Shown here in pieces: positions 55,301 to 58,300 of a stretch of DNA of 64,000 nt. A model generated the notes under the pieces. That model saw only the letters and a list, made by a program, of their open reading frames with translations, was not told the origin of the DNA and searched no databases. Where the stretch lies: NCBI GenBank assembly GCA_028716245.1, contig JAQUQW010000003.1:84638-148637 (forward strand), in the 5' to 3' direction. Both the position numbers and the translations under genes were made by a program. The DNA is from Candidatus Omnitrophota bacterium. Its GTDB lineage: Bacteria > Omnitrophota > Gorgyraeia > Gygaellales > Profunditerraquicolaceae. Each line of letters starts with the position of its first letter. Positions within the stretch are counted from its first letter, which is position 1.

Positions 55301-58300
55301 CACCCTTGGTTCCAATGTGAAATAAAAATAAAGCCATGCTCTAAACCACGGAAATATCTTTTTTTCTCCTTCAGAAAGTTGTAAAAGCTTGCTTAATTCT
55401 CCTGCTATCTTTTCTATCAAGGAGCCGTCCATCTCTTTATGGATATATTTTTGGGTGGATAATTTTATATCTTCGGATAATTCTAATCTCATAATTGCGC
55501 CGGTAACAAATTTTTCCCAATCCTCGACTAAAGAATAACCGTGCTTAGTTACAACCTCATTAATTTGGGGGATATTTTTAGTAAAGACGTTAAGATAACT
55601 TTTTATATCTTCAATCTCTCCCTGCATTAATTGATTTATCTCGATAACCCGAATTATTTTTTTAATACGCTCGCCTATCTCCCAAGATTCATGGTCTCCT
55701 TTCTGAAGAATAAGACTCATCTCTTCTAGCGTCTCTACAAACTGCTTTGCTGCGGAACCGCCGTCTTTGGGAATAGAACCATAACCTTTCCTACGATTTT
55801 CTTCCGTTAGCTGATATGCCGAACCTTTAACTTTATAAAAAAATCTTTTAATTTTGTGAGGGCTTTCTGCCCGCATTTTCTTTAATTCCAGCCTACGCGA
55901 ATTAAAATAATTCATTTCATCTTCTATCTGTTGTCTTGTTAAAGAAGATTTTTCTTGTTCAAACTGCGAAATTTCTATGAGACCCTCTACAGCTTGCTGA
56001 TAGACTATATCTTTTTCTATATCTAGGCGATATTGTATATCTTCGAGTTCTTCGCCTTTAAATATCCAATGCATTAAACCTGCGATAGAGGTTGGGGGGC
56101 CCATTATATATCTTGCTTGAGGAATAATATCTCGCATAGAATTAACAAGGTTTTTCTCCTTATCCTCGCCCTGGCCAGCTTCACAGGAATAAAAAACTAT
56201 TGCGCATCCGTATAAAAATTTATTCTGAATCTCTTTTAATCTATGCAAATTTTCTAAATTTATTTCTAATTCGGCATAAAGATCCCCTAATTGCTTTTTT
56301 ATTTCATCTACTAATTCATTCCCTGCTATAGGAATAGATCCATTTTTTACTTCAGTTTCTACTGTCTCTCTTATGAACTTATCCTTAAATCCTTCGATAA
56401 CTTCCGGTGTTAAGCCCAAATTAATAGTTTGCTCGTCACCGTCGCCGTGTCCTATGACAACTAATAAAGAAGCCGTCTGTTCTTTAGTGGCATCTTTGAC
56501 GCATTCGATTAATTTAGTAACAGTGTTAACCTCTTCATAAAATTTTATTTCATAATTATGGATTTCCAGGGTTGCAAATAAAAATTTATGAATCGGTGTA
56601 GATTTATTGCTTAATAAACTATCTGCTTTCGGGCCAATTATTATAGCTAATTTCTTCTTTAATTGCGCCCCGCCGCCGTCTTTCTGCTCTTTACTCTTCC
56701 CCTCATAAGGCTGTTCTTGGCTGTACTCTCTTGCCCTTGGTTGATATACAAACTCCAGCTCATAAGGTGAACGCTGTTCGATTCGCTTTCCTTTCATTTG
56801 GCTGAGTCTTTCATAGGCATTGGCTGAACCTTTCATCATCCTGATATGTAAGCCAGGAATTGATAATTTCTGCCCATATAAAGTGTGAAAGTTTCCTGCG
56901 CCCTTCGCAATATAAATACAGGCATTACGCCAAGCTTCGCAGAATTCTAGATAATCTTCCGCTTGGCTATCTTCATCTAGAGCGCCGCCATCCTGAAGAA
57001 CAGAGGCGCTCAACCGGCCCCGTTTCCCGATTGAGCGGGAAACAGTTTCCGCCTTTACAGAAGCGCCATTAATTACACTTACCATGTCGCTGCCTTTATT
57101 TTCCTGATTTAACCTTATTCTTAAATTCTCAAAAAATTCTTTTCCTTCTTTTTTTTCTTTAAATCTTCCGATATCGTCTTTAGAAAGCCAGTGATTCTCT
57201 AATGCCTGAAATTTAGGGAATATTTCGTTCGGATAAAACATAATTCTTTTATTGAGTTCTGCAATAACATATTCTTTTTCTACGTCATTGGAATCAGAAG
57301 ACAGGAACCTCACAATCAAGCCCAAATAGTACGAAGGCCTTTCTATAGTGCTAATCTTAATTATATCCGCATCAAAAAATGCTTTCTCCTCAACTTCTGC
57401 TGCTATCCCGCCGTCTTTGCCCCAATAATTCCACCCCGCCATATTTCTATCAAATTCTTCCCAATCAATTTTTTCTCCTCGGCTGATGCGCCTTCTTATT
57501 CTCTCGATATAGTCCCGCTTAGACTTAATGTCCTCCGTAGGCTCGCCCTCCTGCTCTCCTTCTATAAAACCCAGTCCTGATAATACATTGCTAATATGGT
57601 TTAGCTCTAATTCGATCAATTTATTAAAATCGCCTTCTGCTTCCCTGCCCTTATAATCTTGCCTCAATTCAGTTATGCGCTTTGAGACCTCATTTATTTT
57701 TCGGGTTAATTCTTCCATCTGGGTGTTATAGCGAAATACCCTTCTAGCGTCTTGGTGGCTATAATTATTCGGGCCTTCCTTGCTATCTTGCCGGAGTTGA
57801 AGGATTGAATCTTTAGTTATCTTACCTGTTTTAAGATTTATAGATAAACCTTGGGGAACATTTTTAACAAAGGCGCTAATATAGTTTCCTTCCTTTAGGA
57901 CGGAACTCGTCTTTTTTAACATCTCTACAAACTGCTTTTCTGCAGAACCGCCGTCCGGGATTAAATTGTTTTTTGTTACTTCTATATCAGGATAATTAAT
58001 CCTCGTTCTAATTTTATCCTGGACTTCCCGTACTGCCTTTCTTACCAGATCAATTCTATCTGACTTCTCATCAGGCAAAAAAACGGTAATTTTTCTGGCC
58101 ATAAACTTGGATAAATGATTTAAATATGGTTCGGATATCTCTAATTCCTGTCTCAATACTTTTCTTTCACGCGCAATCTCCGCATAAAGTAATCTTATAA
58201 ATTCAGGTATAGTGTTTGATTTCTTTTCTTTGCTTATTTTTATTTTGATTATCTGTAAAATCAAGGCCGTGTCCCGCTCCGGGCCAATCATGCCATCACT

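Follow-up and report, generated by a model that had tools for sequence, protein, structure and literature searches.

A short hairpin shared by an intergenic spacer and a giant open reading frame of Omnitrophota is probably the core of a REP element

We analysed a 64-kb stretch of a contig from a Candidatus Omnitrophota bacterium (JAQUQW010000003.1), referred to here as the window, together with a set of loci fetched for comparison, which carry L-numbers. Every large open reading frame (ORF) of the window lies on the - strand, and two places within it share a short hairpin sequence. One is the spacer between a TPR-protein gene (13328..14878, -) and a ROK gene (11945..13177, -), where a sequence search of the window placed the exact 22-mer GTTTCCCGATTGAGCAGGAAAC at 13274-13295. 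The other is the interior of a giant ORF of 5868 aa (46337..63943, -) with protein kinase, M48 peptidase and SecA DEAD/P-loop domains, where a copy with one mismatch (21/22; GTTTCCCGATTGAGCGGGAAAC) lies at 57022-57043. Both copies and their 21/22 identity had been reported in a first-pass annotation of this DNA, whose coordinates (13277-13298 and 57024-57045) were 2-3 nt too high; the match between them extends to 26 of 28 nt (13270-13297 versus 57018-57045). The window holds these two intact units and one degenerate array, and we consider it likely that the 22-mer is the core of a repetitive extragenic palindromic (REP) element belonging to a system of REP elements and a REP-associated tyrosine transposase (RAYT) that is widespread in Omnitrophota.

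The pair is the best match found by self-BLASTN of the window that is not due to paralogous coding sequence (40.1 bits), a score reached in 7 of 400 dinucleotide-preserving shuffles of the window (p ~0.02 per window). On the window alone the match is moderately unlikely, and a p of this size is not compelling across a scan of many windows. The first-pass annotation had called a chance match in 64 kb very unlikely; this proves less extreme for the window taken by itself, and it is genomes outside it that exclude chance. Among the GTDB species-representative genomes (185,579 species, one genome each) the pattern GTTTCCCGATTGAGCNGGAAAC has 8 exact matches at 7 loci, all of them in Omnitrophota, and exact 22-mers are present in six other Omnitrophota species in both non-coding and coding contexts. 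Because all matches outside the window are from Omnitrophota, and 8 are seen against a chance expectation of ~0.3 by our own estimate, chance is excluded as their source.

The family unit consists of a head, GACCCY, and the sequence GTTTCC-N10-GGAAAC, ~35 nt altogether and often with the start of a next unit added. The stem is 6 bp (GTTTCC/GGAAAC) around a 10-nt loop, and one A or T links each unit to the next. Since units abut via one base, a 13-bp palindrome, GGAAAC-W-GTTTCC, recurs every 23 nt, so that each hexamer in an array belongs to two palindromes and the 23-nt period is strict. This periodic signal is also seen beyond the positions fixed by the search, with TTTCC at -22 to -18 (67-83%) and GGAAA at +39 to +43 (~55-60%). 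The head is non-palindromic and stands at array ends, directly 5' of GTTTCC-CGATT. Loops are variable, most often beginning CGATTRR (the usual form) or GCTTTGR, and occur in both orientations; adjacent loops within arrays are arranged RF in 9 cases, FF in 5, FR in 3 and RR in 3. Units occur singly or in arrays of 2-5 with this period, filling short intergenic gaps. All fetched loci together contain 201 units in 160 arrays of 1-4 exact units, and one locus, L006, which was chosen for holding an array, has three within 8 kb. A loop-independent pattern, GGAAACWGTTTCC-N10-GGAAAC, was found in more than 120 metagenome stretches among the matches listed. The same generic pattern occurs in only three contigs of a viral collection (L008, L009 and L010; IMG/VR).

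Several other kinds of repeat were considered and set aside. The arrays have no spacers and a period of 23 nt, unlike clustered regularly interspaced short palindromic repeats (CRISPR); the half-sites are similar to those of parS or Noc-binding sites but stand 10 nt apart; the R'/R'' core motifs of integron attC sites do not fit; and the sequence is far too rare in the window for a DNA-uptake sequence.

By a simple ORF call, 126 of the 160 arrays lie outside called ORFs, making the family predominantly extragenic, and only 22 arrays have 150 nt or more of stop-free sequence to either side, several of these being in ORFs that look spurious. Gaps holding arrays are co-directional, convergent and divergent in 79, 10 and 8 cases, compared with 457, 57 and 57 for the baseline of the same loci. 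These contexts equal the baseline, which argues against a role specific to promoters or terminators. Four array-bearing loci searched against Rfam in E-value mode matched no family, with only sub-threshold miRNA-like hairpin matches on the arrays, and the stem sequences do not vary and show no compensatory changes. The alternative raised in the first-pass annotation, an mRNA structure conserved in both contexts, thus finds no support. Invariant stems of this kind would equally fit sequence-specific recognition by a protein, and together with the regular 23-bp spacing and the strongly conserved palindromes between variable spacers they raise the possibility of an operator array, in which palindromes 23 bp apart bind a dimeric regulator or nucleoid protein and the copies of the window form one regulon. 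However, arrays lie between convergent genes and inside ORFs at about baseline frequency, and when the 146 genes flanking arrays were scanned against Pfam they proved to be a broad housekeeping mix whose sole common theme is a Y1 transposase. Given this diversity of flanking genes we reject a common regulon, and a protein that binds the palindrome is to be expected anyway, in the form of the RAYT. We return to this explanation, which we regard as distinctly unlikely, below.

The transposase, PF01797 (Y1_Tnp, IS200-like; E = 2.5e-12), is the commonest family among the array-flanking genes, accounting for 6 of the 69 whose start faces an array and 3 of the 77 whose stop does. The flanked proteins are 158-163 aa long, of the HUH/Tyr type, and match the NCBIfam equivalog model NF047646, "REP-associated tyrosine transposase", with scores for six proteins of 79-86 bits (E = 1e-22 to 3e-24) around a cutoff of 80; the IS200 model gives just 17 bits, in one of the transposases. 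The HUH motif MPNHIHL and a Y-x-E-x-NP-[VIM]-[RK]-A motif are kept in all of them. In six loci (L001, L041, L054, L058, L063 and L070) units stand on both sides of the transposase gene in inverted orientation: loops upstream of the RAYT gene end in AATCG, those downstream begin with CGATT, and the heads face the gene. By tblastn, 13 of 130 loci have a transposase homologue; one of them is L006, in which the gene is enclosed by two arrays. In eight loci the upstream neighbour of the RAYT gene is the same Mg-chelatase/ChlI-like (ComM-like) gene, which suggests that the RAYT occupies a fixed chromosomal place.

In the spacer of the window the 22-mer sits at the centre of a longer hairpin (13262-13307, no strand assigned) with perfect 18-nt arms at 13262-13279 and 13290-13307 (AACCAAGACCCTGTTTCC / GGAAACAGGGTCTTGGTT), the loop CGATTGAGCA and the head GACCCT at 13268-13273. 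Folded as RNA, these 46 nt give a 20-bp stem (-35.8 kcal/mol, z = -7.5), compared with 6-8 bp for the stem of the 22-nt core. The ROK gene has a conserved promoter-like block, and the hairpin stands upstream of it, 20 nt past the stop of the TPR-protein gene. The TPR protein is 100% identical to the NCBI protein PHG87_06545 of a "Candidatus Omnitrophica bacterium" metagenome-assembled genome (MAG), whereas an exact look-up of the ROK protein gave no record. Its position past a stop codon, its strong G+C-containing stem and a T8 run at 13306-13313 on the + strand give it the look of a Rho-independent terminator, as the first-pass annotation had proposed. The strong hairpin and the T8 are real, but the run follows the hairpin only on the + strand, the non-transcribed one; read on the transcribed - strand it is an A8 that comes before the hairpin (the corresponding spacers of L131 and L132 likewise have an A7-A8 run). 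What comes after the hairpin on that strand, UUGAAAUCAC, is not a U-tract, and we do not class the hairpin as an intrinsic terminator. Because the T8 is on the + strand and all genes are on the other, the hairpin is terminator-like for antisense transcription only. Most members of the family have no T-run, and many stand directly ahead of start codons. By analogy, a strong hairpin 20 nt past a stop codon could nonetheless protect the 3' end of the mRNA or act as a barrier to transcription.

To follow this spacer through relatives, seven syntenic TPR-ROK loci were fetched via orthologues of the TPR protein, giving eight spacers including that of the window. The 46-nt REP hairpin is present in the window (TPR protein 100% identical in aa sequence), L131 (87%) and L132 (85%); L133 (83%) and L136 (71%) carry a different palindrome (GGGACNGTTTCTATTTTTT...); and L134 (76%), L135 (73%) and L137 (68%) have no hairpin. 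A promoter-like block, cttgacttaagg...tagtaaagtaaaataaatatttt, is common to all eight (13185-13255 on the - strand of the window, cttgacttaaggcttctttggtagtaaagtaaaataaatatttt), while the sequence just upstream of it turns over. Since the eight spacers show the REP, another palindrome or neither, the hairpin at 13262-13307 is a lineage-specific gain: this spot also accepts another class of palindrome, and the element comes and goes as a mobile REP does. Such gain and loss among close relatives next to a constant promoter block speaks against an operator array. The intergenic loop of L131, CGCTCAATCG in its coding-strand reading, is the variant found in the giant-ORF copy of the window, and the single difference between the two window copies is therefore ordinary family variation. 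Comparison of the filled L132 with the empty L134 revealed no clear target-site duplication at the borders, which sets the element apart from miniature inverted-repeat transposable elements (MITEs) and fits HUH-type transposition, which makes none. Of the REP- or MITE-like unit that the first-pass annotation envisaged as able to enter coding sequence, it is the REP that is borne out, by a mostly intergenic family, by the RAYT flanking it and by presence or absence at orthologous spacers.

Arrays can also persist and decay. The degenerate array of the window (5576-5650, no strand assigned; CGAAACTGTTTCC-ACTCCAATCG-GGAAAT...GGAAATAGTTTCG) lies between ORF 5629..7458 and the start of ORF 4892..5590, just before the start codon. 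Contig L080 is syntenic with window positions 4203-9841 at 83-93% aa identity and has a better-preserved unit at the orthologous position, which indicates long persistence together with decay. That the window and L080 both keep an array at orthologous positions, immediately ahead of a start codon, is also what an operator would show.

The same region holds further palindromes. In the gap at 7484-7540, between ORFs 7547..9841 and 5629..7458, the window has a perfect 27+27-nt palindrome (GGGGACGTGCCAAAAAGGGACACCCTT aaa AAGGGTGTCCCTTTTTGGCACGTCCCC) and no RAYT. The same gap in L080 (2246-2716) contains a second RAYT, 53% identical to the L001 type and flanked by a different palindrome (GGGACGGTTCTC...GAGAACCGTCCC), to which the GGGACNGTTTCTATTTTTT hairpins in the TPR-ROK spacers of L133 and L136 are related. 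This looks like a second REP class with gain or loss of its RAYT in relatives. Another perfect inverted repeat, with 26-nt arms (TTTTTAATTGAGCTAACAACTCCGGC / GCCGGAGTTGTTAGCTCAATTAAAAA), lies at 45837-45893 in the 548-nt spacer from the stop of the giant ORF to ORF 44193..45788, and contains ATTGAGC, the heptamer of the REP loop.

The copy inside the giant ORF (57016-57050, no strand assigned) consists of the head GGCCCC (57016-57021), the unit GTTTCC-CGATTGAGCG-GGAAAC (57022-57043) and then A plus GTTTCC (57044-57050), which completes the 13-bp palindrome GGAAACAGTTTCC. Because the head and the adjoining half palindrome are both present, we take it to be an authentic array end. The coding (-) strand reads GAA ACT GTT TCC CGC TCA ATC GGG AAA CGG GGC, that is ETVSRSIGKRG, and so agrees with the first-pass annotation that the copy is in frame and encodes VSRSIGKRG (codons 2301-2309). 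With the exact pattern we found five in-ORF copies, one each in the window, L002 and L003 and two in L005, all in the same orientation and frame and in ORFs that are open across the whole fetched locus; secure in-frame copies are confined to giant ORFs. That annotation had reasoned that only two copies, with none in homologues of the giant gene, would make a mobile unit unlikely; instead there are many copies, and the giant ORFs of L003 and L005 (another species) carry it.

In the window the REP-coded part belongs to a 22-aa module, ETVSRSIGKRGRLSASVLQDGG (56984-57049, -; aa 2299-2320), with a tail that ends in DGG. The module, ETVSRSIGK[RQ]G[QR]L.A.[IV][LF].DGG, occurs at four sites: in the window, at 7285-7362 in L003, and at 5456-5533 and 6959-7036 in L005. 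The protein flanks of the four copies are not homologous. An nhmmer profile of the 78-nt module gave full-length matches at these four giant-ORF sites only, with intergenic matches covering just the REP part. The L003 ORF is a partly colinear homologue of the giant ORF, sharing blocks 30-382, 547-707, 771-1045 and 2055-2187; its module stands 260 aa past the last shared block, as opposed to 114 aa in the window, and the surroundings differ.

Conservation of the module among giant ORFs could be taken to mean that an ordinary peptide motif, conserved purely at the protein level, happens to resemble a hairpin, much as the ~2% of window shuffles that reach the match score could be taken to favour coincidence. 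Yet the giant ORF of L002 carries the REP unit (VSSSIGK) without the module tail, the copy in the window also has the non-palindromic head and the next half palindrome, and exact 22-mers recur in six other Omnitrophota species, coding and non-coding, where ~0.3 matches were expected. We find both of these explanations hardly credible.

What the element did to the protein is best judged from the homology around it. A 44-aa peptide around the site had no candidate match in a database of 5.8 billion proteins, which evidently does not include the giant proteins of L003 and L005. Only two database proteins resemble the region, both DUF89/ARMT1-like and from Omnitrophota. In one of these, P0001, the Pfam DUF89 domain comprises residues 424-719; in the giant segment Pfam does not recognise DUF89 even at E <= 1. 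The giant ORF nevertheless holds a C-terminal fragment of a DUF89/ARMT1-like domain that begins right after the REP: similarity by BLAST (62% over 95 aa) begins at G2309, the last REP-coded residue. In a MAFFT alignment VSVINGASVKAETVSRSIGKR is opposite VAVIGRGEVVRDDVTRDEARE, followed by a 14-aa gap in the giant protein before GRL.

That detectable DUF89 homology begins right after the REP would suit a history in which the giant ORF grew by fusion of neighbouring genes and the REP is a former spacer, now read through, that was never inserted at all. The giant protein strings together enzyme domains that are unrelated, ORF 40349..44188 next to it is likewise a fusion (FBPase plus aldolase), the REP family normally lies between co-directional genes, and the unit is stop-free in five of six frames. 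However, in the MAFFT alignment a single continuous DUF89 domain matches the sequence before and after the REP (VSVINGASVKAETVS with VAVIGRGEVVRDDVT upstream, GRL..VL.DG downstream), which places the REP inside a domain and not between two genes, and the full 78-nt module is present in no intergenic array. We therefore think it unlikely that the copy is a relic of gene fusion. In this alignment the REP-coded peptide takes the place of a longer helix-loop segment inside the DUF89-like domain. We infer an insertion event into the giant ORF, which would have been a replacement, an insertion with deletion, or a recombination joint, and probably neither a simple addition nor a former spacer.

By analogy with TnpA-REP of Escherichia coli and the REPINs of Pseudomonas, the RAYT would bind the folded single-stranded hairpin, cut beside the head and copy or move units to new sites. 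Three products of this activity may be preserved in the window: a 46-nt hairpin specific to its lineage, inserted downstream of the TPR gene (13262-13307); an old and decaying array (5576-5650); and, in frame within the giant ORF, the end of an array (57016-57050). The last is open in the frame used, and either direct insertion accompanied by a deletion or recombination at a REP could have brought it there; most likely the very long protein tolerates it as a passenger in a permissive region. The 22-aa module may then have spread to, or been retained at, several sites in giant ORFs.

The DGG that ends the module is itself a recurrent feature. The giant ORF contains 20 DGG tripeptides where ~1.4 are expected, usually K/Q-DGG followed by a small residue, and 19 of the 20 are encoded by GAYGGCGG, all in frame 0 (for example at 63856, 62911, 57415, 56992, 55765 and 49000). 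Only two other copies of GAYGGCGG exist in the window, and none on the + strand. Codon choice at these sites is skewed: the Asp codon is GAC in 15 of 20, against 19% gene-wide, and the first Gly codon GGC in 19 of 20, against 31%. The giant ORFs of L003 and L005 show the same bias at DGG, and five neighbouring large ORFs are without the motif. Several of the homology blocks between the giant ORF and L003 begin or end at DGG sites. Two origins were considered and rejected: a Shine-Dalgarno relic for KDGG (AAGGACGG is not AAGGAGG, and the motif here lies inside a DUF89 strand), and three degenerate 23-nt units for the module tail, for which the register fails. The DGG motif possibly marks cassette junctions, processing sites or a motif acting at the DNA level.

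The giant gene also contains internal paralogous segments of 77-92% nucleotide identity (55691-55765 versus 57881-57955, and 55104-55139 versus 57816-57851), which include two DGG junctions with the same next peptide (PDGGSAEKQFVE / KDGGSAAKQFVE) and point to segmental duplication within it, as judged from the sequence.

A bolder proposal is that enzyme cassettes are exchanged or added at junctions marked by the REP module and the GAYGGCGG (K/Q-DGG) motif, and that the giant genes of Omnitrophota are built and reshuffled with the help of the REP-RAYT machinery or of a site-specific system that targets these motifs. Four module copies with unrelated flanks, DUF89 homology starting exactly at the REP and homology blocks ending at DGG would all fit; we hold this proposal, in both its parts jointly, to be speculative and unlikely to be right.

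The Omnitrophota family agrees with the features that define REP-RAYT systems (Bertels et al. 2017, PMC5581495) in its short palindromic unit of ~35 nt, mostly extragenic; in a small HUH/Tyr transposase with inverted copies on either side, here seen in relatives; in the match of that transposase to the NCBIfam RAYT model and, as best PDB match, to TnpA-REP; in a conserved neighbourhood of the RAYT, as would be expected if that gene were single-copy and inherited vertically; and in units that are gained and lost among related genomes. It differs in that its units abut, with doubly used hexamers and a strict 23-nt period, and in that its host is a candidate phylum, in which some copies lie in frame in very long ORFs. 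REP/REPIN-RAYT systems have reportedly also been treated by Nunvar in 2010 and by Bertels & Rainey in 2011. Like the bacterial interspersed mosaic elements (BIMEs) of enterobacteria, clusters of several units fill short gaps within or at the ends of operons; BIMEs, however, strictly alternate in orientation and have defined linker motifs, whereas here all combinations occur with a one-base linker, A or T. Rickettsia palindromic elements (RPEs) share with our family a palindromic repeat that lies both between genes and in frame within them, where it adds or replaces a short peptide. The RPEs described by Ogata et al. in 2000 reportedly measure 100-150 bp and encode ~45-50 aa; they are found in many genes of ordinary kind, and no transposase dedicated to them is known. 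The Omnitrophota unit is 22-36 nt (8-11 aa), its certain in-frame copies are in giant ORFs, and we do not class it as an RPE.

Several observations weigh against this assignment. The NF047646 scores are borderline, right at the cutoff, with three of the six proteins above it, and the match to E. coli TnpA-REP (4ER8) is weak (E = 0.08). No RAYT gene was found within the 64-kb window, which has only the two intact units and the degenerate array. The classical 5' GTAG (or GGAG) head is absent, its place being taken by GACCCY, although a GTAG head marks particular REP classes and not the whole kind. The giant protein is 14 aa shorter than the DUF89 proteins at the site, which is not the mark of a simple insertion. 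Finally, the identity of the 22-nt core among coding copies is partly due to the exact-pattern search by which they were found, and it is for that reason no proof of selection at the nucleotide level. Even so, we consider a REP element of a REP-RAYT system the probable identity of the 22-mer.

The giant protein of the window fits the Omnitrophota "multi-enzyme" giant-protein class of a 2026 preprint, and two papers on such giant genes contain no mention of palindromes, hairpins, linkers, polyproteins or RAYTs. When the literature was searched for the 13-mer motif, unrelated primer sequences alone came up, and no paper was found that links RAYT or REPIN with Omnitrophica or Omnitrophota. Beside the giant ORF, ORF 40349-44188 (-, 1279 aa) is a multi-enzyme fusion of a glpX-type fructose-bisphosphatase (FBPase) and a class-II fructose-bisphosphate aldolase, and after it come four further ORFs of 1279-2267 aa. 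Elsewhere in the window, ORF 16149..17333 has a tandem internal duplication with a spacing of 552 nt (16335-16433 versus 16887-16985, and 16575-16622 versus 17127-17174), including a 37-nt stretch identical between the copies.

REP-RAYT systems have, to our knowledge, been studied almost only in Proteobacteria. The family described here would be a clear example from an uncultured candidate phylum. Its unit sequence is new, joining a GACCCY head to overlapping palindromes tiled every 23 nt, and two or more REP classes appear to exist side by side and to compete for one intergenic position. An in-frame copy in a gene of 5,868 codons is unusual for what is otherwise an ordinary kind of bacterial repeat, and the in-frame copies indicate that such elements can join proteins when the host gene is very long, insertion-tolerant and multi-domain. 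The hairpins account for otherwise puzzling short exact repeats, and in Omnitrophota MAGs they are likely to break assemblies and to give rise to spurious calls of a "conserved motif". In the giant genes of Omnitrophota, the REP provides a short DNA marker by which their assembly may be traced.

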